DNA of 43,472 nt from Oculatellaceae cyanobacterium bins.114 (GCA_033764315.1 JANRJA010000125.1:1-43472); one strand, 5' to 3'. Shown: positions 1 to 35,148, counted from the first letter of the stretch. The notes: generated from the letters alone by a model not told the origin. Translations and numbers: made by a program.

Positions 1-110
1 TAGAGGTTTTCCCGATTGCTTCACTTCAGGTCGGCTTTGAGCAATTAACCCGCAAGATGAATACGTTTATTTGTCCACTCGTACATGAGTTAAACCTGCA
101 ACTCATCTTT

Positions 111-476: not shown

Positions 477-606
477 ACAAAAATCCTCTAATGTGAGTAG
501 ATAGTTGTAGGGTGCCCAGAAGAAAAGAGGCGATCGCAGCAAGGGTTTGAGGCGACGCCATCAGAGCAAGGGAGAATTCCCCATAGAACTCTCCCTCAAT
601 CACTCG

Positions 607-3135
607 TTAGTGGGCGATCGCCCGTTCGGTGTCAGCAATTTCTAGACGAGTTTTGATCACGGTGTCTGGGTTCAAGCTGATCGAGTCAATCCCCAATTCC
701 ACTAAAAACCGCGCAAACTCAGGGTAATCACTGGGAGCCTGACCACAGATACCAATCTTGCGACCTGTTGCCTGTGCCCGTTGAATCACCTGACGCACCA
801 TTTTTTTAACCGCTTCGTTGCGTTCGTCAAAGATGTGAGCCACCAATGCCGAGTCGCGATCGAGCCCTAAGGTTAACTGAGTCAAGTCATTCGAGCCAAT
901 GGAGAAGCCATCAAACACTTCGGCAAACTCGTCTGCCAAAATCACATTACTAGGAATCTCGCACATGACATAAACTTGCAAGCCGTTTTCGCCCCGTTTG
1001 AGTCCATGCTTCTCCATTTCAGCTAAGACTTTGCGTCCTTCATCAGGAGTTCGACAGAAGGGAATCATAGGAATCACATTCGTTAATCCCATCTCATCTC
1101 GAACCCGCTTCAACGCTTTGCACTCCAGCCCATAGGCGGCTGCATAGTTGGGGTCGTAGTACCGAGATGCCCCCCGCCAACCAATCATTGGGTTTTCTTC
1201 TTGCGGTTCAAACTCACGACCACCGAGTAAGTTGGCATATTCATTACTCTTAAAGTCTGACATGCGGACGACCACTGGATTGGGATAGAATGCCGCTGCA
1301 ATCATGCCCACCCCGTTTGCCAACTTATCGACAAAGAAGTCGGCTTTGTCTTCATACAGACCTGTGAGTTGAGCAATTTCCCACTTTGCTGCTTTGTCTT
1401 GCAACTCGTCAAAGTGCATCAACGCCAATGGGTGAGCTTTGATGTGGTTCGCAATGATAAACTCCAGACGTGCCAGACCGACGCCATCACAGGGAATTGA
1501 GGACAGCCCAAACGCTTCTTCAGGGTTGCCCACATTCATCAAAATCTTGGTGCGTGTGACAGGCAGGCTGTCTAACTGAGTCTCTTGAATTTCAAAGGGC
1601 ACTAGTCCGGCATAGACTCTGCCTGCTTCGCCTTCTGCACAAGAAACAGTGACCTCTTGCCCCGTTTTGAGGAGACCCGTAGCATTGCCACACCCTACGA
1701 TCGCCGGAATGCCCATCTCACGAGCAATAATCGCCGCATGACAGGTGCGTCCACCCTGATTAGTGATAATGGCACTCGCTTTCTTCATGATCGGTTCCCA
1801 GTCAGGGTCAGTCTTGTTGGTCACCAATACTTCACCCGATCGAAACTCTTCAATCTTGTGAACCTCTAAAATCACTCTGGCACTGCCCTGACCAATCATT
1901 TCACCCACGGCACGACCCGTCACTAACACGTCACCTGTGCCATTGAGTTTGTAAGATTTGAGGACACTGCCTGATTTTTGTGACTGCACCGTTTCTGGAC
2001 GAGCTTGCACAATAAACAGTTGGTTGGTCAACCCATCTTTTGCCCATTCAATATCCATAGGGCTATCGGTGCCCCGCACAGCGGAGTAGTGGTCTTCGAT
2101 AATGCAAGCCCACTCTGCCAACTTCAAGATCTCATCGTCGGTAATGGCAAATTGATGACGCTCATGTACAGAGACAGGAACGTTTTTGGTGAGTTTGCTG
2201 CCTCCCAGGTCATAGACCATTTTGATTTCTTTGCTGCCCAATCGCTTTTCCAGAATGGGACGAAAGCCTTGTTTGAGCGTGGGTTTAAACACAAAGTATT
2301 CATCGGGGTTGACAGCACCCTGCACCACGTTTTCACCCAACCCATAGGCAGCGGTGATTAAAGCCGCATTCTTAAAACCCGTCTCGGTGTCAATTGAGAA
2401 CATCACCCCAGAGGAGGCCAGGTCAGAGCGCACCATTTTTTGTACGCCAACAGAGAGTGCGACAGCAAAGTGGTCAAAGCCTTTGATCGTGCGGTAGGAA
2501 ATGGCGCGATCGGTAAACAGAGATGCAAAGCACTTGTGACAGGATTCTAGAACGCTTTGAATACCATGCACATTTAGATAGGTTTCCTGCTGCCCAGCAA
2601 AGCTAGCATCGGGCAAATCTTCAGCAGTTGCGCTCGATCGCACTGCTACGTCGATTTCATTGCTATAACGGCGGCATTCCTCTTGATCAGCGACATTGAG
2701 ACGATCACATAGGTCGTCCGCTGCACCATATCGCTCACACAATTTAATATAAGCATCGACGATCGCTGCTTCTAATTCCGCTGGAAAAGGCGTGTTTAGA
2801 ATCATCGAACGGGCTTGCCTACCCCGGTCTTGCAGGTTTCTCACGTCTTCAACATCTAAATCTGCAAATAACTGGCGCAACCGCTCATCTAGCCCTGCTC
2901 GTTGAATAAAGTAACGAAAGGCATAGGCTGTCGTCGCAAAGCCAGTGGGCACATTCACCCCTTTTGCAGTCAGTTGTTGAATCATCTCTCCGAGAGACGC
3001 ATTCTTGCCACCCACCAGGGGAATGTCCGCAATTCCAACCTGCTCAAACCAGAGTACGAGTGCGGTTTCTTTGAAATTTTGATCTAAGGTTGATTGTGAA
3101 GATGAGTTGGCTTCAGGTTTGTTGATGATATACAT
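607..3135 (-). CDS. ppsA: Phosphoenolpyruvate synthase (pyruvate,water dikinase)
   Basis: VGGKNASLGEM, VAVRSSATAEDLPDASFAGQQETYLN, phospho-His motif GGRTCHAAIIARE, FSIGSNDLTQL, GICGQAPSD. AGGAG precedes the ATG at 3135 (ORF track starts at 3156). Confidence 0.97.
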   Translation of the reverse strand: MYIINKPEANSSSQSTLDQNFKETALVLWFEQVGIADIPLVGGKNASLGEMIQQLTAKGVNVPTGFATTAYAFRYFIQRAGLDERLRQLFADLDVEDVRNLQDRGRQARSMILNTPFPAELEAAIVDAYIKLCERYGAADDLCDRLNVADQEECRRYSNEIDVAVRSSATAEDLPDASFAGQQETYLNVHGIQSVLESCHKCFASLFTDRAISYRTIKGFDHFAVALSVGVQKMVRSDLASSGVMFSIDTETGFKNAALITAAYGLGENVVQGAVNPDEYFVFKPTLKQGFRPILEKRLGSKEIKMVYDLGGSKLTKNVPVSVHERHQFAITDDEILKLAEWACIIEDHYSAVRGTDSPMDIEWAKDGLTNQLFIVQARPETVQSQKSGSVLKSYKLNGTGDVLVTGRAVGEMIGQGSARVILEVHKIEEFRSGEVLVTNKTDPDWEPIMKKASAIITNQGGRTCHAAIIAREMGIPAIVGCGNATGLLKTGQEVTVSCAEGEAGRVYAGLVPFEIQETQLDSLPVTRTKILMNVGNPEEAFGLSSIPCDGVGLARLEFIIANHIKAHPLALMHFDELQDKAAKWEIAQLTGLYEDKADFFVDKLANGVGMIAAAFYPNPVVVRMSDFKSNEYANLLGGREFEPQEENPMIGWRGASRYYDPNYAAAYGLECKALKRVRDEMGLTNVIPMIPFCRTPDEGRKVLAEMEKHGLKRGENGLQVYVMCEIPSNVILADEFAEVFDGFSIGSNDLTQLTLGLDRDSALVAHIFDERNEAVKKMVRQVIQRAQATGRKIGICGQAPSDYPEFARFLVELGIDSISLNPDTVIKTRLEIADTERAIAH

Positions 3136-3615: not shown

Positions 3616-6600
3616 CTACCACGGGCTACCCACAAGGGTAAAGCCAGCCCAGTAATAGGGATGGACAAAATCACGATTGCCGCGATCGCCCAGTGTATCG
3701 GGTAAATTTAAAGCAACATCTTCACCATCAGCATTGACAAAGATCAGGCGATCGCCCTGAACCCGCACTCTACCCTCTGCCATTGCCAATTGGGCCTGTC
3801 GCAGAGCTTCTGCCTTAATGGGTTGATGTCGCAACTCTTCATAAAACTCGGTCATCAACCCCAGGGTGCCCTCATCACTGATGCTCCACAGACTAGCTAG
3901 AGCCGTTTTGACTCCGGCTTGTACGGCCAACCCCGCAAAACCCAACTCGGCTGTTTCGCTGCCCAGTGCCATGCGACAAGCACTTAAGACCATCAGATCG
4001 ACGGGAGGGTCATTAAACCCAAGTGTGCGAATCTGGTCGAGCCGTAAGCGAGTATCGCTGAACTGAATATAGGAATTGGACAGATTGCCAGGGACAAACT
4101 CACCGTGGGTTGCCAGATGGACGATGCCAAAGGGACGTTCTAGTCGTGCTGCTTGCAATTGAGCAACTGTGAATTGGTTGCCTTCCAGGGTGCTAGTTTG
4201 TCCTTGCCACAAATCAGAAATTGCTTCTAGTTCAGCGGGAACAGCAGGCAGTGGATCTAACCCAAACCTTTGAAAGTTGGAAGTGCCTGCTGCTAACACA
4301 GAACTGTTGCGGATGTCTCGGTAACGAGTATCCACCAGGTTTAAGCTAGGTATCAATCCAAGGCTGTAATTTTGAATCAGAAAATCCTGTCCATCATGCA
4401 AGGCTGCTAGAGGAATGGTTCGCAGCCCCGAATCAAGAATAAAACCAATATTCTCGATTTCGTTGGCTTTTAGGTCAGCTTCCAGCGGCGTAATGATCCA
4501 TTCATAGAGTTGTTGTGCCGCAGGTAAGTAGGTGCGAGTTCGCACTAAACGGGGGTCAGTTACCGCTGCACGCAGTTGTTGAGAGGCTTGAATCACTCTG
4601 GCACGAGTGGCACCCTGAACCCGATGGTAGATTGTCTCTCCACTGGGGGTGACTAAGAGGAGGGTCAGTTCGTCGGTGTCTTGAGGGGCGATCGCCAGTG
4701 TTGGAGGTTGGGTTGGGTTGGGTCGATCGAGGTGACTGGTAAATTGCTGAGTGGCGATCGCCTCTTGTCGCTCAAATGTAGTGGCGATCGGCACATCAGC
4801 TGAGACAAAACTGACGTAAATCAGAGCGGGTTTAATCCCCGTTTGCTGTTGAATATTGAGCAGGCTGTCATGGGCTAGCGGTTCTTCAATGTCATATTCC
4901 TCTGCATATTCCTCTTCATAGTCATACTCATCGTCATCTCCACAATCAGCAAGCTCACACTCATCGGGGTCTGAATCATCTCCCCCTGTGATCAGTTGCA
5001 GATTACCCCGTGTAATGCTGCCCTCAAACGACTCCCCAACGCTAAAGGTGTCAACTCCATTGGTAATCGCGGCGGCTGTGCCGTTGATTCCAGTAAAGTC
5101 ACTGCCACTAAAGCTTGCCCCAATCACAAACGGTGTCTCGCCATTGCCCCCATGCCGAATGATCACCGTTCCGTTGCCGCTTCCTCCAGCCGCAGAAATG
5201 CTAGACAGTAGACCATTGCGATTGGTAAAAGAGCCTGTTGCCCGGAAGAACCGCTCTGTCGTGATATCAATGATTCCTCCTCTGCCAGTGCTGCTACCAC
5301 TGCTACTACTACTAGTACCGCCATCTGCATTGATGGAGGTCACTTGAATATCGCCATTGGGGTCAAGGGTGACGTTGCCACCATCGCCAAAGGGATTGCT
5401 CGTGTCGATGATTCCGGTGGTGATTGCCTCTCTAGCCGTGATGGTGATATTGCCAGGACTGGCTGCCGCTCTCAAATCACCGGTTGTGACTGAACCAGTT
5501 TGAGAGGTGAGTGTGATTGAGCTGTTATCAGTACTGGAAGTCGTAATATTTCCGACCCGAATATTTTGATTCGCTTCAACTTCAATTTGAATAGCTGCCA
5601 AAGTTGAGCCGATAGAGGTAATGGGGCTAGAGGTAATATTGCCTGTCAAATTGACTGTGGTTCCTGTGAGCCGCAATATACCACCGTAGCCTTCAATGTT
5701 CCCTGCAAATGGTGTATCAGTTGTGAATTGGAAAGTGTCATCTCCTGCTGAACCGCTTAATTCCTGAAAGTTAGTGAAGTCAGTGCGGTTTACAGAGCCA
5801 GCATTTGAACCTGTAATCACCCAGTTATTGTTCTCGTTACTACCAAAACCTCCTCCAACAAGGGTATTGGTGCCATCCCCTCCAGAGATAGCCCCTGTGA
5901 CAAAGCCACTGGAGCTTAAGGTAAATTCATCATTCCCGGATGAACCATTCAAGAGTTGGAATCCAGTGAAGTTGATGAGATTTAGAGAGCCAGCATTTCG
6001 ACCTGTGATAGTCCAGGAATTAATAGAGGAACCTTCTGCTGTCAGAGTGTTTGTACCACCCCCTCCAGAAAGGGTGCCAAAAATGCTGCCACCCTCCTCC
6101 ACCGTGAAGCTATCATCTCCGCCGCCTCCCTGGAGGTCGGAGACTGAGGTAAACCGAATGCCATTAACAGTTCCAGTCTCAACTCCTGTAATTCTCCAAA
6201 CGTTGTCGCTAGAACCGCCGCTGAGTGTAGAAACGCCCTGTACGGACGTAGAGGATGGCACGGAAGGATTGTTACTTTCAACCGTTACCGTATTGCTGCC
6301 ATCAGCTCGCCCGATTAACAGAGAAGTAGTAGCAGTGATATTTTGCAGGTCACTGTTGAGGAGATCTAAAGTGTCAGAGCCGCTGTCTGTGGTGCCACCG
6401 AGGGCGATCGCCTGAGTCGTCGTTCCAGGTTGCAAGGTGACAGTCGTCCCCGTCAGAGAACCCAGTAAATCAATTTCACCCGCTGTCAGGCGAATGTCTC
6501 CTCCTCGAATCGTCCCTCTGGAAATCAGGTTACTGTCGTTGACATTGACCGTTACGTCACCAGACCCTGCATCCAAACGTCCGGGTGTGGCGGTTGCTGA

Positions 6601-8931
6601 AATATAGATCGTCAGTCCCGAATTGGCTCCTGAACCGTTGAGGGCGATCGCACCTCCGTTAGTGGTGATGGGGCTGTCGATCGCCAATCCATCTGGAAAT
6701 ACTTCACCTGTTCTGCCTCCGCTCGTCACAGTTCTGCCAGTACCCGTGCCTGTCGTCGTTCCCGTCAGGCTAATATTTCCTGTGCTTGCGTCAATGCTGC
6801 CATAGGTCAAAATTCCTTCATCCTGGGCACTGGTTCCCGTCAGGGTAATCGTGCCACTAGTAGAGGTGATGTCTCCATCGAAACCCAGTTCAACTCCCCT
6901 GAGTGTGAAATCACCGCTAACCCCACTCCCAGTACTGGTTCCAAATAAGCTGATGTTTCCTGTCCCAGAGTTAATGGCTGAAGAGACGATAACTCCTGTC
7001 CCAAAGGCACTGTCTCCAGTCATGGTAATGTCACCATTGCCTGACGTAACAGATCCTGCAATGCTGATGCCTCGCGGTGACTGATTGGGATCATTTCCAG
7101 TACTGGTTCCTCTCAGGATAATGGCTCCTCCCCCGGAGTTAATCGCTGCCTGCGTAAGAATTCCGTCATTAATGGCACTGGTTCCTGTAAAAGTAATTGC
7201 GCCACCTCCTGAATCAATCGTTGCCGCTCCAAGTGTTCTAATGCCTTGTGCAGAGGAGGCACCTGCAGTTCCTGTGACGGTGATATTACCCCCTTGAGTT
7301 GAGATGGGTTGACGAAGGATGGCTGGACCCGTCGCCAGGAGAGAGAGTGCGCCCCCACTGGTTGTAATGGGTGAACTGACATCGATTGTGTTGGCTTCTA
7401 CCGTCAACCCTACTCCAGGTATGGTGTTAATTGGGGCATTAAATAAAATCAGGTTGGTTGCCTGCAACACTACATTAGTAAGCGCATTATTAATCGTGCC
7501 GTTATTAATGGTGTTCCTGAATCCCGGAGGGTTGGTGTCCGGATCAGCAAACTGGTCGTTAGCGGCGAGTTGTGGGGGTAAATTTGCGCCTACCACAACT
7601 TCAATATCGGTGGGATCTAGCAGCAACGTTCCCACCTGTCCTAAGGGGGCTGTCAGATCCGCAACGCCAGTAAAATCGAGATAGTTCAACCCAGACACTT
7701 CAGCAAAGCCCCCATTGCCGCCGAGGTTGCCGCCCCGAGCCGTCAAGCTGCCATAAAAGCGAGTAGCGTCATCAGCCCAGGTGATGATGCGTCCGCCATC
7801 GCCTTGATTGATGGCATTCGCCGTGATTTGAGAATCAGCACTGACATAGGTACGAGAGGCATTAAACACTGTGCCCTGTCCCTGATAGTCGCCGCCAATC
7901 CGAACCGTACCGCCACCATCGGTTCCAGAGGCATCCAGGTTGGCATTAAGCAGGGCAACGCGATCGCCCAACACATTAATTTGGGGAATCGAAGAGACGC
8001 GATTAGTCACGTCTGTGCGGATGGAGGTATCGAGTGTACCAGAGGCGATGGTTGTTCCGGGTTGGACGGGAACGCTAGTCCCACCCAATTGAATCGTGCC
8101 ATCAGGATTCGTGACGATCGCTGTTGCGGTGGCGATCTCTCCCCCGGTTAACAACTCTGGCAGCGACAGAGGCGAAAATGGCAAGGGATTGATGCCAGCC
8201 TCCCAACTGCCATTGGGTGAGTCTAACTCTAAGCTGAGCAGACTCCCTTCTTGACTGACCCGTAACCGATTGACTCCGGGAATAGCGGCTAAGGTGATCG
8301 TTCCTCCCGGTGCCGATATCGTTCCAGTGTTAACAACTGTTCCCCCAATCAGACCGACACTTTCACCGGGATTCACAGCCAGGTTGCCTGCATTGACGAT
8401 TGCCCCAGCTTGACTCAGGGTAAAGGCAAAACTATCAGGATCGCCGATCAGTGCTGCATAGTTGTTAGAGCCAACGGCATTGAACGTGTTGTTGCCAAAG
8501 CCGATTCCGGTTGCAGTAGTGGCGTAAAAGGAAGCTGGGAGATCTAAGCGGGCATTGGCTCCAAACAAAATTCCTGCTGGATTAAGCAGATATAAATTAG
8601 AGTTGCCGCCAGTGACTTGCAATAAGCCATCGATGAGAGAGGCTTGTCCTCCGGTGACACGTCCCAAAATGTTTTGAATGTCAGGACGCGAGACAAAGGA
8701 GGCAATTTCTGCGGCACTCAAGCCAAACCGCTCAAAACTGTGAAACAAATTGTTGCCAGATTGCGTTCCGCCTGTGATGGTGAAGCGGCTTCCATCCTGA
8801 TCAACCACTGTTCCAGCACTGTTGGGTTCAGACCTGACTGATTGCGCTTGCACTGGCAGTGCTGTTAGTAGGGGCAATATTCCACACGAGACAAGACTGA
8901 GGAACCAGAGGCGGGAGGCGATCGCAGACAT
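3616..8931 (-). CDS. Filamentous haemagglutinin N-terminal (TPS) domain protein with C-terminal CHAT (caspase/HetF-like) protease
   Basis: Signal peptide ending VQAQ; TPS motifs NLFHSFERF and NLYLLNPAGILFG; long Gly/Thr/Ser beta-helix repeats; CHAT dyad IVHLATHG and LMVLSACRMALG; C-terminal HPYYWAGFTLVGSPW. Start ATG 8931 preferred over 8961. Confidence 0.92.
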   Translation of the reverse strand: MSAIASRLWFLSLVSCGILPLLTALPVQAQSVRSEPNSAGTVVDQDGSRFTITGGTQSGNNLFHSFERFGLSAAEIASFVSRPDIQNILGRVTGGQASLIDGLLQVTGGNSNLYLLNPAGILFGANARLDLPASFYATTATGIGFGNNTFNAVGSNNYAALIGDPDSFAFTLSQAGAIVNAGNLAVNPGESVGLIGGTVVNTGTISAPGGTITLAAIPGVNRLRVSQEGSLLSLELDSPNGSWEAGINPLPFSPLSLPELLTGGEIATATAIVTNPDGTIQLGGTSVPVQPGTTIASGTLDTSIRTDVTNRVSSIPQINVLGDRVALLNANLDASGTDGGGTVRIGGDYQGQGTVFNASRTYVSADSQITANAINQGDGGRIITWADDATRFYGSLTARGGNLGGNGGFAEVSGLNYLDFTGVADLTAPLGQVGTLLLDPTDIEVVVGANLPPQLAANDQFADPDTNPPGFRNTINNGTINNALTNVVLQATNLILFNAPINTIPGVGLTVEANTIDVSSPITTSGGALSLLATGPAILRQPISTQGGNITVTGTAGASSAQGIRTLGAATIDSGGGAITFTGTSAINDGILTQAAINSGGGAIILRGTSTGNDPNQSPRGISIAGSVTSGNGDITMTGDSAFGTGVIVSSAINSGTGNISLFGTSTGSGVSGDFTLRGVELGFDGDITSTSGTITLTGTSAQDEGILTYGSIDASTGNISLTGTTTGTGTGRTVTSGGRTGEVFPDGLAIDSPITTNGGAIALNGSGANSGLTIYISATATPGRLDAGSGDVTVNVNDSNLISRGTIRGGDIRLTAGEIDLLGSLTGTTVTLQPGTTTQAIALGGTTDSGSDTLDLLNSDLQNITATTSLLIGRADGSNTVTVESNNPSVPSSTSVQGVSTLSGGSSDNVWRITGVETGTVNGIRFTSVSDLQGGGGDDSFTVEEGGSIFGTLSGGGGTNTLTAEGSSINSWTITGRNAGSLNLINFTGFQLLNGSSGNDEFTLSSSGFVTGAISGGDGTNTLVGGGFGSNENNNWVITGSNAGSVNRTDFTNFQELSGSAGDDTFQFTTDTPFAGNIEGYGGILRLTGTTVNLTGNITSSPITSIGSTLAAIQIEVEANQNIRVGNITTSSTDNSSITLTSQTGSVTTGDLRAAASPGNITITAREAITTGIIDTSNPFGDGGNVTLDPNGDIQVTSINADGGTSSSSSGSSTGRGGIIDITTERFFRATGSFTNRNGLLSSISAAGGSGNGTVIIRHGGNGETPFVIGASFSGSDFTGINGTAAAITNGVDTFSVGESFEGSITRGNLQLITGGDDSDPDECELADCGDDDEYDYEEEYAEEYDIEEPLAHDSLLNIQQQTGIKPALIYVSFVSADVPIATTFERQEAIATQQFTSHLDRPNPTQPPTLAIAPQDTDELTLLLVTPSGETIYHRVQGATRARVIQASQQLRAAVTDPRLVRTRTYLPAAQQLYEWIITPLEADLKANEIENIGFILDSGLRTIPLAALHDGQDFLIQNYSLGLIPSLNLVDTRYRDIRNSSVLAAGTSNFQRFGLDPLPAVPAELEAISDLWQGQTSTLEGNQFTVAQLQAARLERPFGIVHLATHGEFVPGNLSNSYIQFSDTRLRLDQIRTLGFNDPPVDLMVLSACRMALGSETAELGFAGLAVQAGVKTALASLWSISDEGTLGLMTEFYEELRHQPIKAEALRQAQLAMAEGRVRVQGDRLIFVNADGEDVALNLPDTLGDRGNRDFVHPYYWAGFTLVGSPW
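7991..8016. repeat. REP-like palindrome embedded in frame in the TPS-CHAT gene
   Basis: gaagagacgcgattagtcacgtctgt matches intergenic 23563-23588 at 24 of 26 positions. Confidence 0.65.
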
Positions 8932-9088
8932 AAACACCCTCACTATTTTTAAGAAACACACGTTTTAGGAAGCACACGGCTCAATCTTGAAATCTCTCAC
9001 CCTAGTTTTCTATTGCAGGAGAGGCAACAGAAACTTTAAAGCCCTTTTTCTCCAAAAGAAAGGTTGGATGAAGGTAAATGATCCATGC

Positions 9089-9865
9089 CTATCGAGCAGA
9101 ACAGGTTAAGTTAGACTGAGAGGCGATCGCCTCTAGCCCAATCTCGGTTAGGGTCTGATTCCACTTTGTGGTGATCAAATGGTTAGGAGACAGTTGTCTT
9201 GGAGAGGACTGGCAATACGCTGTTCCCAGGGCAGTCATAAATTCGCTCCAGAGTCCGGCTTGTTGGTAAGCGGCGAGTTGGTTTTCTAGTGAAGTTCCGG
9301 TGACAGGGGTTGCGATCGCGGGTGGTGCAATTCGGGATAGTTCCACTTCTGCCACTTTGTTACTAGAGACATCAGTCGAATCACACTGCACCACTAGCAG
9401 CCAGCGATGAGTTGTGCCCACAGTGAGAGCAGGTTCACTATTGGGGAGTCGAATACTAACAATTCCAGCAGGGGTTGGGGGCAAAGATAGAACCTCACGC
9501 TGAGTGTAATAAATGCGACCCGTAGATGGGTCACTGCCGGGTTCGGGTTCTTCGAGCCACAGGGAGGCACTCACAGAGTTGCTAATGGCGTAGGGCACAT
9601 AAAACCAGAGGGTTGGGTGATCTGAAGCGGTTGTGCCTTGAGCAATCAGAGTGCCGTTGGCATCCTGTAGCGGCACCAGGGCAGTTAAAGGAATATCAAC
9701 GTTAGGGCAACTGCCAGCTCGCTGTCCACCCCCTCTGCGATTGCCACTGGGAACTCCCCAGCCCGATGCCATTAAGATAGGTGGTGCAACCTGTGCCAAA
9801 ACAGGGGGAGCTACAACCAAGATTGATAGGAAACAAGTGAGTACCCGTGTTTTCCAGGGGCGCAT
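9089..9865 (-). CDS. DUF928 family exported protein
   Basis: Signal peptide ending VLAQ; RRGGGQRAGSC..PLTALVP, TTASDHPTLWFYVPY, GIVSIRLP, YQQAGLW motifs; typical location between CHASE2 and CHAT genes. Confidence 0.88.
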   Translation of the reverse strand: MRPWKTRVLTCFLSILVVAPPVLAQVAPPILMASGWGVPSGNRRGGGQRAGSCPNVDIPLTALVPLQDANGTLIAQGTTASDHPTLWFYVPYAISNSVSASLWLEEPEPGSDPSTGRIYYTQREVLSLPPTPAGIVSIRLPNSEPALTVGTTHRWLLVVQCDSTDVSSNKVAEVELSRIAPPAIATPVTGTSLENQLAAYQQAGLWSEFMTALGTAYCQSSPRQLSPNHLITTKWNQTLTEIGLEAIASQSNLTCSAR

Positions 9866-26368: not shown

Positions 26369-26559
26369 ACTGTGCATCTCCTGCTTAAGAATGCGTGTTT
26401 TGAGGTAAGAATGCCATAGATTAAAGTGTCAATCTACCCATACTGATAATTTTCTACACAAAAAGAAACAGATAGGGCGCGATCGCCCCTGGTTAAACGC
26501 GCTATCTCAGCACTCCCTTCGTCTCTGAGTTAAGATTGGGTCGTCGCATCGACAGAGAT

Positions 26560-27327
26560 ATGACCGATCGGGATGAGCACCTCCGAAGTTTGATTGAAAC
26601 GGTTCAACAGCAACCGCCCAAAAGTTTGCCTTGGCGCAAGGCAATGCATCGGCTGTTGCTCGAAGTGCAACAGTTGCCAGGGTTGGCGCGATCGCCCCAC
26701 CCCGACTATGCCGAAGCCTTAGATGATGCCCTGTTGCGCTTGGGCGATGCTATTAAAACCTTTGAACCCCGGCAACCGTCGCTCGAAAAGAGCTTAACCG
26801 CCTGGATTAACCTGAAGTTGCGACTCAAATATGAAGTCCGAGAGTTGCATGCACCGCCGCGATCGCGCAGTTTATCAGCGACTCGCAACCCCCAGATTGA
26901 GTTTAAGCAGCAAGCCCAAAAGCCGCCGCTTTCGTTAGATGCTCCCCTGGATGCAACAGGAGGAACGAGTTTTGGCGATCAATTGCCTGCCGCTGGAGCT
27001 TTTACCCTGTGGGATCTCGAAGAAAAAATTCAACAGGAACAAGAGCAGCATCGCACCATTCGCATCGGCGTGCAATTGCAGAAATATATTGAAACAGACC
27101 CTGAACGACAACTCCAGAAATGCCATCCTCAAGCCCATCCTGATTGCCATTGTCAGATGCTGAGCCAACGACTCCTGCTCAAACACCCCCCCGATCGCCT
27201 GTCTGCGATCGCGCGTGAGTTCAATATCAACTACCACACCCTCAACTGGCACTGGAAAAATCGCGGACTGCCTTTATTGCAAGACATCGCCAAAAAAATG
27301 GGCTATCAACCCGATAGAACTATATAA
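26560..27327 (+). CDS. Divergent sigma-70/HetZ-like transcription factor
   Basis: Region-2-like YAEALDDALLRL..FEP..SLTAWIN, linker PLSLDAPL, C-terminal HTH LSAIAREFNINYHTLNWHW; located upstream of a DUF1822 gene. Confidence 0.72.
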   Translation: MTDRDEHLRSLIETVQQQPPKSLPWRKAMHRLLLEVQQLPGLARSPHPDYAEALDDALLRLGDAIKTFEPRQPSLEKSLTAWINLKLRLKYEVRELHAPPRSRSLSATRNPQIEFKQQAQKPPLSLDAPLDATGGTSFGDQLPAAGAFTLWDLEEKIQQEQEQHRTIRIGVQLQKYIETDPERQLQKCHPQAHPDCHCQMLSQRLLLKHPPDRLSAIAREFNINYHTLNWHWKNRGLPLLQDIAKKMGYQPDRTI

Positions 27328-27400
27328 ACCAGCAAGAGACGGTAGAGGAAGAGTGAAGAATGAAGAGTGAATTTCTTTCATCCCATCCATCACCCGCCCG

Positions 27401-27632
27401 AAACTCAAACCCCAAACCCCACCCTCAAAACCCAAATCCAAACCTCAAAACTAAAACCTCAAAACTAAAACCTCAAAACTCAAAACTAAAAACTAAAACC
27501 TCAAAACTCAAAACCAAAACTAAAAACTAAAAACTAAAAACTAAAATCCAAAACCCCACCCTCAAAACTCAAACCTAAAATCCAAAACTCAAAACTCAAA
27601 ACTCAAAACTCAAAACTCAAAACTCAAAACTC
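27401..27632. repeat. Heptamer tandem repeat array (CAAAACT and variants), STRR-like
   Basis: About 230 bp with no G on the + strand; seven perfect CAAAACT copies at 27583-27631. Confidence 0.92.
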
Positions 27633-27641
27633 CCCCTCCCC

Positions 27642-28682
27642 ATGCCTAGCCCTATCTCAACTCACTTAACCGTTCCCTTAACCGCGATCGCCCATGACTG
27701 GGCACGGCACTTTGCCACTGAGCAAGCCAATCCTCAAAAGGGCAAACGGGTATATCTCAACACGTTGGCGGTGTGGGCCGTGCATCGCTATCTCAACTGG
27801 TTGCAGATCGACACTGATCTAGAGCGCAGTGATAGTTGGAATCTGCGGCTCAACACGTTGCTTGATATTGCCGATCTAGTGTTGCCCACCTTAGGACAGC
27901 TAGAGTGTCGTCCGGTGTTACCCCACGAAACTGAGATTCACATGCCGCCTGAAGTAAAAGGCAATCGCATTGGTTATGTTGCGGTGCAACTGGATGAACT
28001 ATTGCACGAGGGGCAGTTATTGGGGTTTATTACTCAGGGGGCGATCGCTGATGAGACTGAAATCGTCTCCCTCTCAGACCTGCAACCCCTCGATCACCTG
28101 CTCGACTATGTCAGTCACTTAGAGGCAGGAGCCGCAGTCACTAGCTCAGGTCAAGAAACGATGACATCTCTCACCCAATTGGGGGGGTGGTTGCAAAATC
28201 AGTACGAAATTGGCTGGCAGAGCCTTGAAGCACTCTTTGACAATCGCACGCCAGTTTTAGCATTTCGGGGGGCAGCCGTGAGACGAGCAAAGCGGTTAGA
28301 GTTACAACAATTACCTCAGATTCAATCAACGGATTGGCAAACCGATCAGCGGGCAGATCCACTAGCATTTCAACAGGTTGACTTTACCGCAGAAACCACT
28401 ACCCAGCGTCTCTCAACTTTGGCATTTGTGGTCAGTCTTACTCCCGAAACCCCAGAGCAAATCTGTGTCCATTTACAGGTTTGCAATCTGGGAGAACGCG
28501 CCGAACTGCCCCCTCAACTGCGGTTACAGGTGTTAACGGCAACTGGGGAAGTGTTCCGAGAGGTGGTTTCTCGCGAGAACGACACCTTTTTGCAATATGA
28601 ATTTACTGGACAACTGGGAGAAGAATTCAGCGTCGAAGTGGCTCTGGGAGATGCCCGCATTCGAGAACTGTTTGTCATTTGA
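27642..28682 (+). CDS. DUF1822 family protein (candidate anti-sigma factor)
   Basis: FATEQANPQKGKRVYLNTLAVWAVHRYL, DSWN, ADLVLP..LECRPV, RIGYVAVQL, LGGWLQNQYEIGWQ, C-terminal GEEFSVEVALGD. Confidence 0.88.
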   Translation: MPSPISTHLTVPLTAIAHDWARHFATEQANPQKGKRVYLNTLAVWAVHRYLNWLQIDTDLERSDSWNLRLNTLLDIADLVLPTLGQLECRPVLPHETEIHMPPEVKGNRIGYVAVQLDELLHEGQLLGFITQGAIADETEIVSLSDLQPLDHLLDYVSHLEAGAAVTSSGQETMTSLTQLGGWLQNQYEIGWQSLEALFDNRTPVLAFRGAAVRRAKRLELQQLPQIQSTDWQTDQRADPLAFQQVDFTAETTTQRLSTLAFVVSLTPETPEQICVHLQVCNLGERAELPPQLRLQVLTATGEVFREVVSRENDTFLQYEFTGQLGEEFSVEVALGDARIRELFVI

Positions 28683-28806
28683 ATCTCGCGCCATTTGAAC
28701 TAATCTAATCTCAGGTGCACCTTTTCTAAAACTCCCGCCAGTTCTCACCTAATCATTTGAATGCATCTCCTGTAATTCAGTCGTGTAACCCGTCTTTGTA
28801 ACCTCA

Positions 28807-31800
28807 ATGGGAGCATTAGTCATCCTCGATTTTGATGGCGATTTGCAGCAGGGTGTCGTCGCGACCCTGGAAATTCGCATGGATGATCTGCTGAGTGATG
28901 GCTCTGTGCGGAGTGTGGTGCAGGCTCGTGCTAAGGGCAAACTCCCTGCTAATCCAAGCTTGCTCAAGCAGTATCAACAGTGGCGATCGCTCTACCACAA
29001 TTTGAGTTTGCTGTTTCGTCTGGGCGATCGCCCCAATCCCTTGCCAAGTGGGTCAAAAGCCGATGTTATTGCGGCTTGTCGGCTCACGGCGACTGAGTTA
29101 GTGACCGAGTTTAATCAGTGGTTAGCCACCGATTCACTCAGAACGATTCGAGAACAGTTCCTTGAAAAGCTCTCTCCGGCAGACACGATTCGCATTATTC
29201 TGCAATCTGAAGATCCACACATTCGCCGCCTGCCCTGGCATTTGTGGGATGTGTTGCAGCGATATGCCAATGTTGAATTGACGCTCAGTGCCCCAGCCTA
29301 TGAACGGATTGTCGTTTCGGGGCGATCGCGCCAAAAAGCTCGAATTTTAGCGGTGTTAGGTAACCGCACAGGCATTGACATTGAAGCCGATCGCCAGTTG
29401 TTGACCACCTTGCCCAATGGGGCAGAAACCTGTTTTTTGGTAGAACCTGATCGGCAGCAGTTGCAGCAATATCTGTGGGATGCAGAAGGTTGGGATATTT
29501 TATTTTTTGCGGGTCACAGTGCCAGTTACCCCAGTAGCAATCACCCCGGCGATGAAGCAGGTTACTTTGAGTTAAACCAACACGATCGCATTTCGGTGGA
29601 TGAGTTGACCTATGCTCTGCGTAAGGCGATCGCTCAAGGATTGCAATTGGCGATCTTTAACTCTTGTGATGGGTTGGGCTTAGCAAACCAACTGGAACGG
29701 CTACACATTCCCCATCTGATTGTGATGCGAGAGCCTGTGCCCGACCGGGTGGCTCAAGCTTTTCTAAAATACTTTTTGGTCAATTTCTCAGGAGGACAAC
29801 CGCTGCATCTCGCTGTAAGAGATGCCCGGGAGCAGTTGCAATCCCTTGAAGATCAGTGCCCCTGCGCCACCTGGTTGCCGATTTTGTGTCAAAATCCTAC
29901 CTCCGATCCCCCGACTTGGTTAGAGTTGAGCGGACATCCCACTCCGCCTTCCATTCGGACTTCTCAGGCTCACTCTGGGCACCGAGCCGATCGATTACAA
30001 GCTCCCTTTGTGATCCCAGCCTGTCCCTATCGGGGGCTAACTGCATTTCAAGAGACAGATGCCCCCTTCTTTTTTGGGCGCGAAGCACTGGCAGAAAAAT
30101 GGGTAGACCTGGTGCAGCAGCGTCCTTTAGTAGCGGTGATTGGGGCATCTGGCAGTGGCAAATCATCGTTGGTGCTGGCGGGGTTGGTGCCTCGGTTGCG
30201 ATCGCAATCCTGTTGGCAAATCGCCATTTTACGCCCCGGCAACCATCCCTTTGCGCGGTTGGCAGAGCAGTTGATCCCCTTGTTAGAACCGGGACTGCGT
30301 GAAACGGATCAGTTGATCGAAGGGAATAAACTGGCGATCGCCCTCCAACAGGGTACTGTGGCTCTGGCAGATGTGATCGATCGCATTATACAAAAACAAA
30401 CGGTTCACTCCCAAACCCGTCCTCAACGGGTGTTGTTAGTGGTCGATCAATTTGAGGAACTATACACCCTCTGCTCTAACAACGAGGAGCGTCAACAGTT
30501 TCAGGATTGCTTGTTAACAGCAACGTCTAGAACGTCAGCCCTGACGCTGGTGCTGACCCTGCGAGCTGATTTTTTAGAGTATGCGCTTGCCCATCGCACG
30601 TTTGCTCAAGCTCTACAACAGTTTTCGCCAGAATTGTTAACCCCCATGACACGAGCCGAGTTGCAGGCCGTAATTGAAAGACCAGCCGCAAGCTTAGGCA
30701 TACACTATGCGGAAGGGCTGACGGAACGGATTTTAGATGCAGTAGAAGCGGCTCCTGGATACCTGCCATTGCTAGAATTTGCGCTGACGTTGCTGTGGGA
30801 GCAACAGAGTCAGGGATATCTCACCCATGCCGCTTATGAAGCGATCGGCGGAGTAGAACGAGCCTTGACCACCTATGCTGAACAGGTCTATAACAGTTTG
30901 GATGCACCCACTCAACGACAGGCACAGCAAATTTTTACGCAACTGGTGTGTCCGGGTGAAGGCACGGCTGATACCCGTCGGTTAGCCACTCGCAGCGAGA
31001 TTGGCTCTGAAAATTGGCACTTAGTCACCCGTCTGGCGGATACCCGCTTGGTCGTGAGTCGTCATGACGACACTGCCCACGAAGATATTGTGGAGATCGC
31101 TCATGAGGCACTGATTCAAGAGTGGCAACGGTTGCGCCAATGGCTAGAAGACGATCGCAGCTTTCGTACCTGGCAAGAGCGGTTGCGCGGGGTGGTGCGT
31201 CAGTGGGAGATCAGTCAACGAGATGAGGGAGCTTTATTGCGCGGTGCTCCCCTGGTCGAGGCAGAGCACTGGTTTCAAGAACGCCAAACTGACTTGAGCC
31301 AGAGTGAACGGGAGTTTATTCACGCCAGCCTGAAACAACGCCATCTAGACCAACATCGGCGCGATCGCCAACGTCGTTTTCGCATCACTGCCCTGTCTAG
31401 CGGCATCACAGCGGCTCTTTTGTTGATCGGAGTTGCCGCATGGCAGTGGCAACGTGCCGAAATTATCACCAGTAATGCTCAATTGGATTCATTAAGTGCT
31501 GCCTCAGAGGAATTGTTTGCCTCTGGTAAACAACTCGAAGCGTTGTTAGAGAGCTTGCGGGCTGGCAAACAATTGAGCCAACTGAGTGAGGCTCATCCTG
31601 ATACTCATATTCATGTGATCACAACCTTGCAACAAGTTATCTATGGTGTTCGAGAATATAACCGCCTGATTGGACACGAGCGCAGTGTCATTCACGCTAG
31701 CTTTAGCCCCGATGGGCAAATGATTGTGTCGGGCAGCGACGATGACACCGTTCGTTTGTGGCGACGAGATGGCACGCTGATTAATACGTTGAGAGGACAC

Positions 31801-33588
31801 CGAGATCACGTCCGCAGTGTTAGTTTTAGCCCCAATGGGGCGATGATTGCCTCTGGCAGTTATGACCACACGATTCGCCTATGGCGACGAGATGGCACAG
31901 CGATCGCCACCCTAACTGGACACACTGACAAAGTCACCAGCATTAGTTTTAGTCCCAATGGACAGTGGCTTGCCTCTGCCAGTGCCGATGGCACCGTCAA
32001 ATTATGGCAACTGAATGGCACCAACCCTCAGGTTTATGCCACCTTGTTGGGTCACAAAGGGTGGGTTATGACCGTCCGCTTTAGCCCCGATGGGCAGCTT
32101 CTCGCCTCGGCGGGTAACGATGGCATTATTCGCCTGTGGCGATCGTCTGATGGGCAACTGGTGGAGACCTTCCCGCGACAAATGACATCCATTGATGGTT
32201 TGAGCTTTAGCCCTGATGGAGCCATGCTGGTCGCGGCTACCAAAGCTGGAAATCTCTTGTTGTGGCGTCGTTTGGGCGATCGCTTCACCCTCACCCAAAC
32301 AATGACAGGGCACACCGACCGCGTTTGGGGAGTCAGTTTTAGTCCCGATGGTCAGTTGATTGCCTCTGCCAGTGCCGACAATACGGTGAAACTGTGGCAA
32401 CCCGATGGCAGATTGATCGTCACCTTAGAGGGTCACAACTCATCAGTTTACAGTGTTAGCTTTAGCCCCGACGGTGATACGTTGACCTCCACCAGTGCTG
32501 ACAACACCGTCAAATTGTGGCACCCCAACAGTCCCTATCTAGAGCGGTTACAGGCTCATGTCAACAAAGTGCGAGACATTAGCTATAGCCCCGATGGTCG
32601 CATGTTTGCCACGGCTAGCGATATGACTGCCAATCTCTGGCAGACCACATTACCCCTGCCACAAGGCTCACCCACTGTGCCCCCGACGACTGCTCAGCCC
32701 ATCCTATTGAGTGGTCATCAAGAAAATGTCAACCAACTTAGCTTTAGCCCCGATGGACAATGGGTAGCCACAGTCAGCAACGACACCACCGTTAAACTGT
32801 GGACAGTAACAGGGCAGTTGGTACAGACCTTACAGGGCTATACTCAGAACGTTTTAGACGTGCAATTTAGCCCCGATGGCAAGCTTTTAGCGATCGCCGG
32901 AGAGGCTAATACGATTCAACTTTGGCAACGCGATCACACCGGACGGTTTGCATCTACCCCTGTGCAAACGCTGCTGGGGCACTCTAAAGAAATCACCTCT
33001 CTGGCATTTAGCCCAGATGGGCAATGGTTAGCCTCCAGCAGTGACGACCACACGATTCGACTGTGGCGACATCAAGGCAACGGTTCCTTTGAGGCTAACT
33101 CTACGCAAATCTTGACCCATACTAGCCGAGTTACCTACGTCAGCTTTAACCCCAATGGTCAGACCCTCGCCTCAGCCACTGCCGATGGCAACGCTATCCT
33201 ATGGAACCAGGATGGAACCTTGATCGCCCGCCTCAGTGGACACCGCGATCGCATCAACAGCATTATCTTTAGTCCCGATGGTCGCCTGGTTGCTACGGCC
33301 AGCGACGATGGAACGGTCAAACTCTGGAACACCAACGGCACCCTACTCAAAACCTTGCAGGGAGAGTCTTCTGCTTTAACAGCTCTCAGTTTTAGCCCCG
33401 ATGGACAGACCCTTGCTTCAGCCAATGCCAATGGACAAGTCATCTTCTGGAACTTTAATCTCGATAACTTAATGACTCAGGGATGTGATTGGCTCAGCGA
33501 CTATTTGCGCACCAATGCCATCTTGTCACCGAGCGATCGCAACGTTTGCTCAACCTATTCCACTAGATATCAAACGACACCCCGTTAG
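28807..33588 (+). CDS. CHAT protease + STAND NTPase (nSTAND1-like) + TM helix + about 14 WD40 repeats
   Basis: CHAT dyad ILFFAGHS and AIFNSCDG; CPYRGLTAF..FFGRE; Walker A GASGSGKSS, Walker B VVDQFEE, LTLRADF; TM segment GITAALLLIGVAAWQW; repeated GH..V..VSFSPDG..ASAS.D.TVKLW. Confidence 0.94.
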   Translation: MGALVILDFDGDLQQGVVATLEIRMDDLLSDGSVRSVVQARAKGKLPANPSLLKQYQQWRSLYHNLSLLFRLGDRPNPLPSGSKADVIAACRLTATELVTEFNQWLATDSLRTIREQFLEKLSPADTIRIILQSEDPHIRRLPWHLWDVLQRYANVELTLSAPAYERIVVSGRSRQKARILAVLGNRTGIDIEADRQLLTTLPNGAETCFLVEPDRQQLQQYLWDAEGWDILFFAGHSASYPSSNHPGDEAGYFELNQHDRISVDELTYALRKAIAQGLQLAIFNSCDGLGLANQLERLHIPHLIVMREPVPDRVAQAFLKYFLVNFSGGQPLHLAVRDAREQLQSLEDQCPCATWLPILCQNPTSDPPTWLELSGHPTPPSIRTSQAHSGHRADRLQAPFVIPACPYRGLTAFQETDAPFFFGREALAEKWVDLVQQRPLVAVIGASGSGKSSLVLAGLVPRLRSQSCWQIAILRPGNHPFARLAEQLIPLLEPGLRETDQLIEGNKLAIALQQGTVALADVIDRIIQKQTVHSQTRPQRVLLVVDQFEELYTLCSNNEERQQFQDCLLTATSRTSALTLVLTLRADFLEYALAHRTFAQALQQFSPELLTPMTRAELQAVIERPAASLGIHYAEGLTERILDAVEAAPGYLPLLEFALTLLWEQQSQGYLTHAAYEAIGGVERALTTYAEQVYNSLDAPTQRQAQQIFTQLVCPGEGTADTRRLATRSEIGSENWHLVTRLADTRLVVSRHDDTAHEDIVEIAHEALIQEWQRLRQWLEDDRSFRTWQERLRGVVRQWEISQRDEGALLRGAPLVEAEHWFQERQTDLSQSEREFIHASLKQRHLDQHRRDRQRRFRITALSSGITAALLLIGVAAWQWQRAEIITSNAQLDSLSAASEELFASGKQLEALLESLRAGKQLSQLSEAHPDTHIHVITTLQQVIYGVREYNRLIGHERSVIHASFSPDGQMIVSGSDDDTVRLWRRDGTLINTLRGHRDHVRSVSFSPNGAMIASGSYDHTIRLWRRDGTAIATLTGHTDKVTSISFSPNGQWLASASADGTVKLWQLNGTNPQVYATLLGHKGWVMTVRFSPDGQLLASAGNDGIIRLWRSSDGQLVETFPRQMTSIDGLSFSPDGAMLVAATKAGNLLLWRRLGDRFTLTQTMTGHTDRVWGVSFSPDGQLIASASADNTVKLWQPDGRLIVTLEGHNSSVYSVSFSPDGDTLTSTSADNTVKLWHPNSPYLERLQAHVNKVRDISYSPDGRMFATASDMTANLWQTTLPLPQGSPTVPPTTAQPILLSGHQENVNQLSFSPDGQWVATVSNDTTVKLWTVTGQLVQTLQGYTQNVLDVQFSPDGKLLAIAGEANTIQLWQRDHTGRFASTPVQTLLGHSKEITSLAFSPDGQWLASSSDDHTIRLWRHQGNGSFEANSTQILTHTSRVTYVSFNPNGQTLASATADGNAILWNQDGTLIARLSGHRDRINSIIFSPDGRLVATASDDGTVKLWNTNGTLLKTLQGESSALTALSFSPDGQTLASANANGQVIFWNFNLDNLMTQGCDWLSDYLRTNAILSPSDRNVCSTYSTRYQTTPR

Positions 33589-34647: not shown

Positions 34648-35148
34648 TCACTTTGATACCGTTTCCAAAATAGTTCTAATCAGAGCGATCGCAGCTTCAG
34701 CCTGATCCGCTATAAATGTTTGTTTTTGTGAGAGATGGGTGAAAAAATTTTGACTATTGGTATCAGAATTCAACAACACAATTGGTTTACCTGCTTTAAT
34801 GGCCAATGCGGCTTCTGATGCTGTACCAGCTCCCATTCCACAGATCACAACAACGTCACTCGACAACACATTGATGTTGTTTCGAGCACTTCCCATATCC
34901 GTAAAAATAGCAATGTCGATCGCCGTTGAGAGATGCTGCCCAACCGCATCGGGCAAGATGCCAACCGTCAAACCACCCCCCGATTTTGCGCCTTGACTGG
35001 CTGCCTGCATCACCCCTTCGTCTCTGCCACCCGTCAATAATACCCATCCTGCTTGAGCGACCAGATATCCTAGATTCCAGGCAACGTCACGATCTGCTGG
35101 AGTAGCAGTGCCTCCAGGCCCCATCACCCCAATCATGGTTTTTCTCAT
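34648..35148 (-). CDS. LOG/SLOG-family Rossmann-fold nucleotide-binding protein (TIGR00725-like)
   Basis: IGVMGPG, LLTGGRDEGVMQAASQGA, VGILP, MGSARNNINVLSSD, GAGTASE. Confidence 0.85.
   Translation of the reverse strand: MRKTMIGVMGPGGTATPADRDVAWNLGYLVAQAGWVLLTGGRDEGVMQAASQGAKSGGGLTVGILPDAVGQHLSTAIDIAIFTDMGSARNNINVLSSDVVVICGMGAGTASEAALAIKAGKPIVLLNSDTNSQNFFTHLSQKQTFIADQAEAAIALIRTILETVSK

Follow-up and report, generated by a model that had tools for sequence, protein, structure and literature searches.

The element described here occupies positions 26560–33588 of a 43,472-nucleotide (nt) stretch of DNA from Oculatellaceae cyanobacterium bins.114 (GCA_033764315.1, JANRJA010000125.1:1-43472), which is referred to in its entirety as the window. 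It comprises three genes in a single orientation (open reading frames ORF1, ORF2 and ORF3), encoding a divergent protein that resembles sigma factors of the extracytoplasmic function (ECF) type, a DUF1822 protein, and a protein that joins a CHAT protease domain, an nSTAND1 NTPase, a hydrophobic helix and WD40 repeats. The module is real, intact and conserved. On balance, we think it probable that the three proteins turn a signal into transcription by proteolysis, with DUF1822 serving as an anti-sigma factor that the CHAT protease would cut. The domains, the linkage of the genes, the sigma fold and a strongly scored interface between the first two proteins were obtained by computation. An earlier note on this DNA had proposed the same mechanism, and it appears the most likely reading, backed by the predicted interface and by an experimentally studied analogue.

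ORF1 is not recognizable as a sigma factor by sequence-family searches. It matched no family in Pfam or NCBIfam at an expectation value (E) of 1 or below, Sigma70_r2, Sigma70_r4 and TIGR02937 included, and no chain in the Protein Data Bank (PDB); Pfam domains are absent from all 75 of its homologues, and those named at their source are all cyanobacterial. The ATG at 26560 is the start position in all 75, and the ORF call of 26536–27327 begins at a TTG. The AlphaFold2 model of ORF1 (37 homologues; predicted local distance difference test (pLDDT) of 86.7) contains a sigma2-like and a sigma4-like domain in the correct order. Every PDB chain that Foldseek listed for this model belongs to a sigma factor (E of 2.6e-3 to 0.11, none reaching 0.001), and chains from sigma/anti-sigma complexes are among the fold matches (1or7 in Foldseek, and also 5wuq and 4nqw). 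In the family profile, an invariant PLSLD motif (PLSLDaPi) is aligned with region 3.2 of SigA with an E of 0.17. Three paralogous sigma-like proteins gave nothing useful against PDB chains by sequence; paralogues adjoining other DUF1822 genes of the same genome match TIGR02937 with E of 2.1e-29 (above the cut-off), 1.3e-5 and 2.6e-4. Given the absence of a sequence-family match, ORF1 is called sigma-like because of its fold and its paralogues, in agreement with the earlier note, and its assignment as a very divergent ECF-type sigma factor is well supported by the model, although not proven by sequence.

The second protein matches the Pfam family DUF1822 (PF08852; 1689 clusters at 50% identity) over its full length, with an E of 7e-72. 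Its AlphaFold2 model (48 sequences; pLDDT of 88.4) has an alpha/beta N-terminal domain (N-domain) and a beta-sandwich C-terminal domain (C-domain). The modelled N-domain possesses the alpha-beta-beta-beta-alpha-beta core fold of the PD-(D/E)xK superfamily, and VIA-align matched it to PD-(D/E)xK nucleases, with NhoI and DpnI lower. A hairpin formed by strands 78–81 and 85–92 of the model carries the acidic motif of this domain, whose residues are conserved among the 48 sequences (D78 in 43, E88 in 44, C89 in 44 and R90 in 37). Foldseek returned generic immunoglobulin (Ig)-like matches, to the C-domain only. Neither the four-helix domain of class I anti-sigma factors nor a zinc-binding HxxxCxxC motif is present in the model, and no zf-HC2 or RsiW-type Pfam match was obtained; among PDB chains, the sequence gave one chance match (E of 0.25) and the family profile (A3) chance matches only (E of at least 0.41). 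Kaur et al. (PMC8195603) label DUF1822 'a TPR protein'; contrary to that label, no tetratricopeptide repeats (TPRs) are seen in the model. In the ESM Atlas, two clusters of 179–192 residues match the DUF1822 N-domain (template-modelling score of 0.71–0.72 by the shorter chain), and more than half of the members of both come from tailed phages.

Complex predictions for ORF1 and DUF1822 reached an interaction prediction score from aligned errors (ipSAE) of 0.86, 0.86 and 0.88, and the best of three controls scored 0.01. Among 157 solved complexes, 116 attain the ipSAE mark applied, and among 215 mismatched pairs, 2 do so; this calibration is rough here, where our own alignments (A1 and A3) were used. 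At least 80% of the contacts are common to the runs, and the partner has a pLDDT of 76. The predicted interface involves residues 7–158 of DUF1822, that is, the N-domain only, and residues 28–70 of sigma2 and 156–182 and 213–256 of sigma4. Since DUF1822 has no solved relative, memory of that side of the interface is unlikely, while the sigma side does resemble solved sigma/anti-sigma complexes. The models support binding across sigma2 and sigma4, an interaction that the earlier note had anticipated, and DUF1822 most likely inhibits the sigma factor, which would make it an anti-sigma factor of a new structural type. As in classical ECF sigma/anti-sigma pairs (sigmaE-RseA, PDB entry 1or7), the partner is predicted to lie on both sigma2 and sigma4, and release by proteolysis is proposed. 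Unlike RseA-type partners, DUF1822 is soluble, with a PD-(D/E)xK-like binding domain in place of the four-helix domain and zinc motif, and the proposed protease is a caspase-like receptor rather than a site-1/site-2 protease pair.

The two domains of DUF1822 may have separate roles. Across five paralogous pairs, similarity of the N-domain tracks similarity of the sigma factor, and C-domains are shared more widely (an anecdotal sample, n = 5). In one ESM Atlas cluster, a TRADD-like N domain (PF20694, present in 96% of the members) is fused to the DUF1822 C-domain. Taken together, the interface, the co-variation among paralogues and this fusion suggest an output role for the N-domain, with the C-domain as a shared handle that the protease might use.

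ORF3 has the composition of a receptor fused to a protease. The CHAT domain (PF12770) spans residues 113–356 with an E of 1.3e-13; the first ~110 residues, which were searched only jointly with CHAT, resemble those of paralogues by eye. FFAGH and FNSC, the motifs of the catalytic dyad, are retained in the CHAT paralogues of the same genome, and AGHS and NSC in five of five orthologues. The NTPase belongs to the STAND class, as indicated by a score of 403.6 bits for PF20703 (cut-off 27.1) and by two intact Walker motifs, with GSGKS of Walker A present in all five orthologues. The 13 WD40 stretches recognized by Pfam probably form two seven-bladed propellers. These ORFs, together with the re-translated motifs, bear out what the earlier note had seen, namely three co-oriented genes, an intact FAGH/FNSC dyad, Walker A and B motifs, one hydrophobic helix and about 14 WD40 repeats.

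The hydrophobic helix at residues 860–879 is the sole 19-residue segment of ORF3 with a Kyte–Doolittle value of at least 1.6. A hydrophobic segment occurs at the same site in all five orthologues (Kyte–Doolittle 1.39–2.21), preceded by an arginine-rich flank and followed by a flank of the WQWHRAE type, and it is a probable single transmembrane segment. Among sister proteins, a transmembrane helix lies between the CHAT part and the sensor in three of three CHAT proteins with a periplasmic binding protein (PBP) sensor, in the one CHAT-WD40 protein and in the one CHAT-CHASE2 protein examined; the one CHAT-NACHT protein examined has nine transmembrane segments. All examined sister proteins with an N-terminal CHAT domain thus have a transmembrane helix ahead of the sensor, and none that is convincing was found in the two TPR-CHAT proteins examined. 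Because of the conserved, arginine-flanked helix after STAND and the helices in the sister proteins, the WD40 propellers are probably extracytoplasmic, and CHAT and nSTAND1 cytoplasmic. A receptor therefore fits better than a cytosolic sensor like that of Apaf-1.

The earlier note had described the sensor as apoptosome-like, an analogy that is weakened because the WD40 repeats, unlike those of Apaf-1, are probably outside the cytoplasm. What ORF3 has in common with the Apaf-1/CED-4 apoptosome is a STAND NTPase, WD40 repeats and a caspase-fold protease in one pathway, with NTP-dependent oligomerization as the likely mode of activation. It differs in that its protease is fused to the NTPase rather than recruited through an adaptor, in that this NTPase is nSTAND1 and not NB-ARC, and in the conserved helix between STAND and WD40, which makes it probable that a membrane separates sensor from switch; these differences place it outside the Apaf-1-like group. 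Moreover, a sigma factor rather than cell death is proposed as the output.

The association of the three genes was surveyed by scanning with the ORF1 profile, using one genome per species; 97 relatives were found and 80 loci kept, 71 of which allowed the third gene to be judged and nine of which end too soon. DUF1822 lies directly 3' of the sigma-like gene at 77 of the 80 loci, often with a 4-nt overlap, and a CHAT gene is next after DUF1822 at 52 of the 71. The CHAT proteins fall into several classes: CHAT-CHASE2 (19), TPR-CHAT (15, one of them by phmmer only), CHAT-PBP_like_2 (6), CHAT-WD40 (1), CHAT-NACHT (1), proteins cut off at contig ends (4) and the architecture of the window, CHAT-nSTAND1-transmembrane helix-WD40, which is complete at five loci (Crinalium, Oculatella, FACHB-471, Oscillatoria and Lusitaniella) and broken at one (Coleofasciculus). 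TPR-only ORFs are the third gene at 2 of the 71 loci. The earlier note had expected a sigma-like gene, DUF1822 and CHAT with variable sensors, and the neighbourhoods have this form, the sensors being CHASE2, PBP, WD40, NACHT, STAND-WD40 and TPR. Full-length orthologues of ORF3 (1559–1622 residues) occur in five other genera, with an identity of 45–59% in WD40 compared with 63–71% in STAND, and conservation extends, with similar identity, to all three genes in these genera, six with that of the window.

In the genome to which the window belongs, five DUF1822 genes each follow a co-oriented sigma-like gene, and four of the five are followed in turn by a CHAT gene. The third genes are three CHAT-CHASE2 genes, each then followed by DUF928, the CHAT-STAND-WD40 gene of the window, and one ORF of 112 residues (locus L008; G000:C222, 7550–7888, minus strand). 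By eye, the latter is like the N-terminus of a CHAT protein and seems to be what is left of a protease gene that has been lost; the gene after it encodes a GMC oxidoreductase. Five Nostocaceae-like genomes carry 2–7 copies of DUF1822 each. In one Nostocaceae-like genome (L011; G014:C23, 4495–9873, minus strand), a 512-residue sigma-like protein and a 431-residue DUF1822 protein are followed by a C14 caspase instead of CHAT ('EACC1-associated type', NF047832, E of 3.9e-31). Because of this replacement, the constant partner is taken to be a clan-CD protease, and the constant theme of these loci is a sigma factor followed by DUF1822 and a clan-CD protease, with an interchangeable sensor.

At L054–L075, in Microcoleus and relatives, the third protein (1037–1586 residues) has the reverse architecture, in which a long series of TPR repeats comes first and CHAT is at the C-terminus, the same general layout as that of CRISPR-associated TPR-CHAT proteins. 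At L033 (Coleofasciculus sp. H7-2, 4135–9353), the orthologous CHAT-STAND-WD40 protein is split into ORFs of 406 and 819 residues, the first starting 1.45 kb beyond DUF1822, which suggests insertion and disruption.

Modules of this kind were already catalogued in silico in 2021 and are not new as a kind. The computational study of Kaur et al. (eLife; PMC8195603) described a constant module of EACC2 and a caspase with a variable C-terminus; in most of the neighbourhoods an ECF sigma factor and DUF1822 are encoded as well, and stimulus-induced activation of an autopeptidase, with a transcriptional output, was proposed. The window has the same gene set, and the pairing of a sigma-like gene with a DUF1822 gene recurs at 77 of the 80 related loci. 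ORF3 likewise combines a constant N-terminal module, with CHAT near the N-terminus, and a C-terminal part that is exchanged among relatives, and the sensors listed in that study include STAND NTPases, CHASE2 and repeats. A difference is that, in the available portions of PMC8195603, DUF1822 is neither stated to bind the sigma factor nor named as a substrate.

The analogue that has been studied by experiment is HetF-PatU3-sigmaHetZ. In Anabaena sp. PCC 7120, the CHAT domain of HetF cuts PatU3 after R117, and PatU3 was proposed, with reference to earlier work on their interaction, to sequester HetZ (Xing et al., PNAS 2022; PMC9457339). Cryo-electron microscopy identified HetZ as an ECF-type sigma factor with three insertions, and PatU3, which inhibits and cross-links to HetZ, is likely an anti-sigma factor (Hu et al., PNAS 2026; PMC13342950). 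There, as is proposed for the window, a membrane CHAT protease cuts, after an arginine, a soluble inhibitor bound to an atypical ECF-type sigma factor, and the genes for sigma factor and inhibitor are adjacent and, in Anabaena, co-transcribed. The two systems differ in that hetF does not lie beside hetZ-patU and in that ORF1 lacks the three insertion domains of HetZ. HetF has periplasmic TPRs and neither STAND nor WD40, and ORF3 matches the HetF family NF045509 in the CHAT region only, with 16.7 bits (E of 0.0017; cut-off 1200), and is thus not a HetF. The earlier note overstated the novelty of the system, since the gene set had been reported (PMC8195603), as had a sigma inhibitor cut by CHAT (PMC9457339, PMC13342950).

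Two CRISPR-associated systems provide a further comparison. In type III-E Craspase (Csx29, a TPR-CHAT protein, with Csx30 and RpoE) and in type III CalpL-CalpT-CalpS, a signal-activated protease reportedly cuts a sigma-binding protein and thereby alters transcription. NF041236 ('type III-E CRISPR-associated RpoE-like sigma factor') turned up in the NCBIfam scan of the sigma-like paralogues. Unlike Craspase, the module has no CRISPR-Cas genes, arrays or Rfam CRISPR families in view in the window, in which the neighbours but not every ORF were scanned; to that extent it is independent of CRISPR, as the earlier note had held. Here the activating part would be STAND with WD40 instead of an RNA-guided complex or a cyclic nucleotide.

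Inhibition, cleavage, the cleavage site, the topology of the receptor and the nature of the signal are what we infer in the following scheme. The nuclease-fold N-domain of DUF1822 would be clamped between sigma2 and sigma4, most likely holding the sigma factor inactive. ORF3 would be a membrane-anchored receptor-protease, with CHAT and nSTAND1 in the cytoplasm, one transmembrane helix and two WD40 propellers outside. Upon sensing of a ligand or an envelope event by the propellers, NTP-dependent assembly of STAND would be driven, and the CHAT domains would be brought together and activated. CHAT would then cut DUF1822, perhaps with the Ig-like C-domain as a docking handle, and the sigma factor would be freed. 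Arg209 is the candidate cleavage site, because it is conserved, in coil and outside the interface, and because HetF cuts PatU3 after an arginine. It is the most conserved arginine of the DUF1822 family (44 of 48 sequences, inside an F-R-x5-R-x-K motif), has a pLDDT of ~62 and lies away from the predicted sigma interface.

The same genome also contains a hetZ orthologue (380 residues), which overlaps a full-length patU (347 residues) by 8 nt (L029; G000:C65, 3195–5373, minus strand). To locate the pair, a Nostocaceae-like genome was scanned with TIGR02937, and a protein search was then made; a degenerate DNA pattern of the published PatU3 cleavage context, tried for locating patU, matched in 0 of 401 genomes. 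At one offset, 12 of the 15 residues named in PMC13342950 match in this HetZ, and two homologues of this PatU carry the NCBI name PatU. Two further HetZ paralogues are encoded at C97:11131-12387 and C251:12039-13178, and patU at L029 is followed by the gene for a 774-residue transglutaminase-like membrane protein (TgpA_N, Transglut_core, DUF4129).

PatU and DUF1822 have several features in common. Both are ~346 residues long, and both genes follow and overlap their sigma gene, patU in this genome and DUF1822 in related sigma/DUF1822 pairs. In the ESM Atlas, once DUF1822 clusters are set aside, PatU clusters take the first three places among the feature neighbours of ORF2 (0.82), and DUF1822 clusters take all ten of the best places among the named neighbours of PatU (0.83–0.84), with 171–178 of 256 features in common; scores below 0.9 rank as leads only, and ten concordant matches also arise for a third of shuffled proteins. 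A conserved arginine is found in both, in the form SPxR204-S for PatU (21 of 25 sequences) and F-R209 for DUF1822 (44 of 48 sequences); judged by the R-S motif alone, R204 of PatU may be equivalent to the published R117 of the split PatU3. A common ancestry is possible rather than established. We propose only tentatively, and regard with some doubt, that DUF1822 and PatU form one superfamily of soluble restriction-endonuclease-like anti-sigma factors. Every such protein would be paired with a fast-evolving minimal sigma factor of its own and would be cut after a conserved arginine (R209, or ~R204 in PatU) by a cognate caspase-like receptor, and HetF-PatU3-sigmaHetZ would be one domesticated member of this large family.

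A number of observations weigh against the reading of DUF1822 as an anti-sigma factor cut by CHAT. PatU has no match to DUF1822 in Pfam, nor any Pfam match even at an E of up to 10; hhalign gave no significant alignment of PatU with DUF1822 profiles (probability of 0.9–1.2%, E of 0.045–0.059, 49–59 colinear C-terminal columns), nor of HetZ with the ORF1 profile (1.2%). BLASTP among the sigma-like proteins, HetZ paralogues, DUF1822 paralogues and PatU of this genome likewise gave no HetZ or PatU cross-match below an E of 1. The 314-nt, repeat-filled spacer between ORF1 and ORF2 interrupts the tight coupling of the other loci, where the gap between the sigma gene and DUF1822 is mostly −4 to +53 nt (77 related loci). 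An adjacent CHAT gene is absent at 17 of the 71 judged loci, so that the sigma/DUF1822 pair can occur without a neighbouring protease; at one of the 17, CHAT is encoded ~5 kb upstream on the same strand, and at two it is encoded a few kb downstream on the opposite strand. The surveyed loci are also kin, many from Nostoc and Microcoleus, and the counts overstate their independence. Predicted binding does not establish inhibition; DNA binding or a co-factor role would be just as compatible with a nuclease fold that carries conserved acidic residues. What Kaur et al. (PMC8195603) proposed is autoproteolysis of the caspase protein, not cleavage of DUF1822, and searches of the literature on DUF1822, on cyanobacterial CHAT/anti-sigma and on CHASE2/CHAT/sigma yielded no experiments on any member of the module.

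The missing CHAT genes and the long spacer speak for three genes that are mere neighbours with no common pathway. We regard this as very improbable, given the linkage of DUF1822 to a sigma-like gene (77 of 80) and of CHAT to DUF1822 (52 of 71), a sigma-like gene upstream of all five copies in this genome, and a complex score of 0.86 compared with 0.01 for the best control.

DUF1822 might instead be a positive partner of the sigma factor, its N-domain supplying DNA recognition or promoter opening of which the minimal sigma factor by itself is devoid, with the CHAT protein processing itself or another target. Such a role recalls sigmaHetZ, in which reading and opening of the −10 element falls in cis to the insertion domains rather than to sigma2 (PMC13342950), and it accords with the autopeptidase activation of PMC8195603. 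A natural fusion of the two proteins also exists: the metagenomic protein P0310 (692 residues) joins an ORF1-like sigma factor (residues 1–~340) to a full DUF1822 (residues 373–692). This protein is, however, a singleton cluster on two contigs, a lead only, which may be a true fusion or an artefact of read-through, assembly or frameshift. The predicted interface covers surfaces of both sigma2 and sigma4, as an anti-sigma factor would, and PatU3, the nearest counterpart of the middle gene to have been studied by experiment, is an inhibitor. A positive partner is accordingly considered unlikely.

A third alternative is abortive infection or programmed death, in which an invader would be sensed, STAND would unleash CHAT as a broad protease, DUF1822 might be a nuclease effector, and the sigma factor would do no more than tune expression. 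Architectures of STAND, caspase and repeats are conflict systems in PMC8195603, the fold of DUF1822 is nuclease-like with a conserved acidic motif, and divergent paralogues are numerous in each genome (5 here; 2–7 in five Nostocaceae-like genomes). Against this, PADLOC gave no match for ORF1 or DUF1822 and matched ORF3 through its WD40 repeats only. The trio is moreover an orthologous unit across genera, with even identity and a sensor that is only slightly more divergent, the sensors of sister proteins (CHASE2, periplasmic binding protein) are typical of extracellular small-molecule or envelope sensing, and the probable transmembrane helix puts WD40 outside, away from intracellular invaders. 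We consider this alternative quite improbable. The earlier note had suggested a switch for defence or development; the defence part of that suggestion is not sustained by the PADLOC result, and conservation of the trio across six genera is like that of a core signalling module.

The features of the module are collected in Table 1.

Table 1 Positions of the genes, domains and motifs of the module, counted from the first letter of the window
Feature	Position (nt)	Residues	Strand	Basis and remarks
ORF1	26560..27327	255 from ATG (MTDRDE)	+	TTG at 26536 gives 263 residues
ORF1 sigma2-like domain		~8-108 (263-residue numbering)	+	Model
ORF1 sigma4-like helix-turn-helix		~162-259 (263-residue numbering)	+	Model
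Heptamer tandem repeat CTCAAAA	27424..27632		none	Tandem Repeats Finder: 30.4 copies, 80% matches
ORF2, DUF1822 protein	27642..28682	346	+	Pfam PF08852
DUF1822 N-domain, PD-(D/E)xK-like fold	27666-28151	~9-170	+	Model; predicted sigma-binding face
DUF1822 motif D78 ... E88-C89-R90	27873..27911	78-90	+	Beta-hairpin; resembles PD-(D/E)xK signature, Arg for Lys
DUF1822 C-domain, Ig-like beta-sandwich	28155-28679	~172-346	+	Model, fold matches
DUF1822 Arg209 codon	28266..28268	209	+	Candidate CHAT cleavage site
ORF3, receptor-protease	28807..33588	1593	+	
ORF3 N-terminal constant module	28807..29874	1-~110 plus CHAT	+	Residues 1-~110 at the position of EACC2 of Kaur et al.
ORF3 His237 in FFAGH	29515-29517	237	+	Motif, re-translated
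ORF3 Cys287 in FNSC	29665-29667	287	+	Motif, re-translated
ORF3 nSTAND1 NTPase	30025..31227	407-807	+	PF20703, E 1.7e-120
ORF3 Walker A GASGSGKS	30142-30165	446-453	+	Motif
ORF3 Walker B LLVVDQFEE	30433-30459	543-551	+	Motif
ORF3 hydrophobic helix	31384..31443	860-879	+	Kyte–Doolittle 2.0; N-terminal flank HRRDRQRRFR
ORF3 WD40 repeats, proposed sensor	31651..33477		+	PF00400, E 1.3e-154, 13 stretches

In the aligned upstream regions of nine orthologous loci, no conserved ECF-type promoter was found. The sole conserved element is a TAAGAT hexamer just 5' of the ORF1 start, present in about six of the nine, with TAGGAT and GAAGAT as variants (~26527–26532 in the window, with equivalents at L030, L031, L042, L049 and L033); it could be the −10 box of an ordinary promoter. 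A scan for consensus promoters and terminators remained at chance level, and no Rfam family, CRISPR families included, matched anywhere in the window. The CTCAAAA repeat, which fills the spacer between ORF1 and ORF2, probably plays no functional role in the module; we take it to be akin to the short tandemly repeated heptamers of cyanobacteria. Shortly beyond the 3' end of the trio, the minus strand carries (34648–35148) a gene for a SLOG cluster4 (LDcluster4) protein (E of 3.8e-51), which has a weak PADLOC match to PsyrA (E of 1.2e-4).

If the proposed mechanism is true, the module would belong to a large cyanobacterial family of pathways in which a membrane receptor-caspase frees a dedicated sigma factor by cutting its soluble partner, and would generalize the single studied case, HetF-PatU3-sigmaHetZ of heterocyst development. 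It would also provide DUF1822 with a function and would be a case of a nuclease fold put to new use in sigma binding. The copy in the window is the STAND-coupled variant, in which assembly of the type seen in nucleotide-binding leucine-rich repeat (NLR) proteins may control transcription instead of cell death. Should the superfamily proposed for DUF1822 and PatU also be real, the family would be one of transmembrane 'receptor-caspase' switches, to which the window copy would add an NLR-type NTPase gate between the extracytoplasmic WD40 propellers and the protease.

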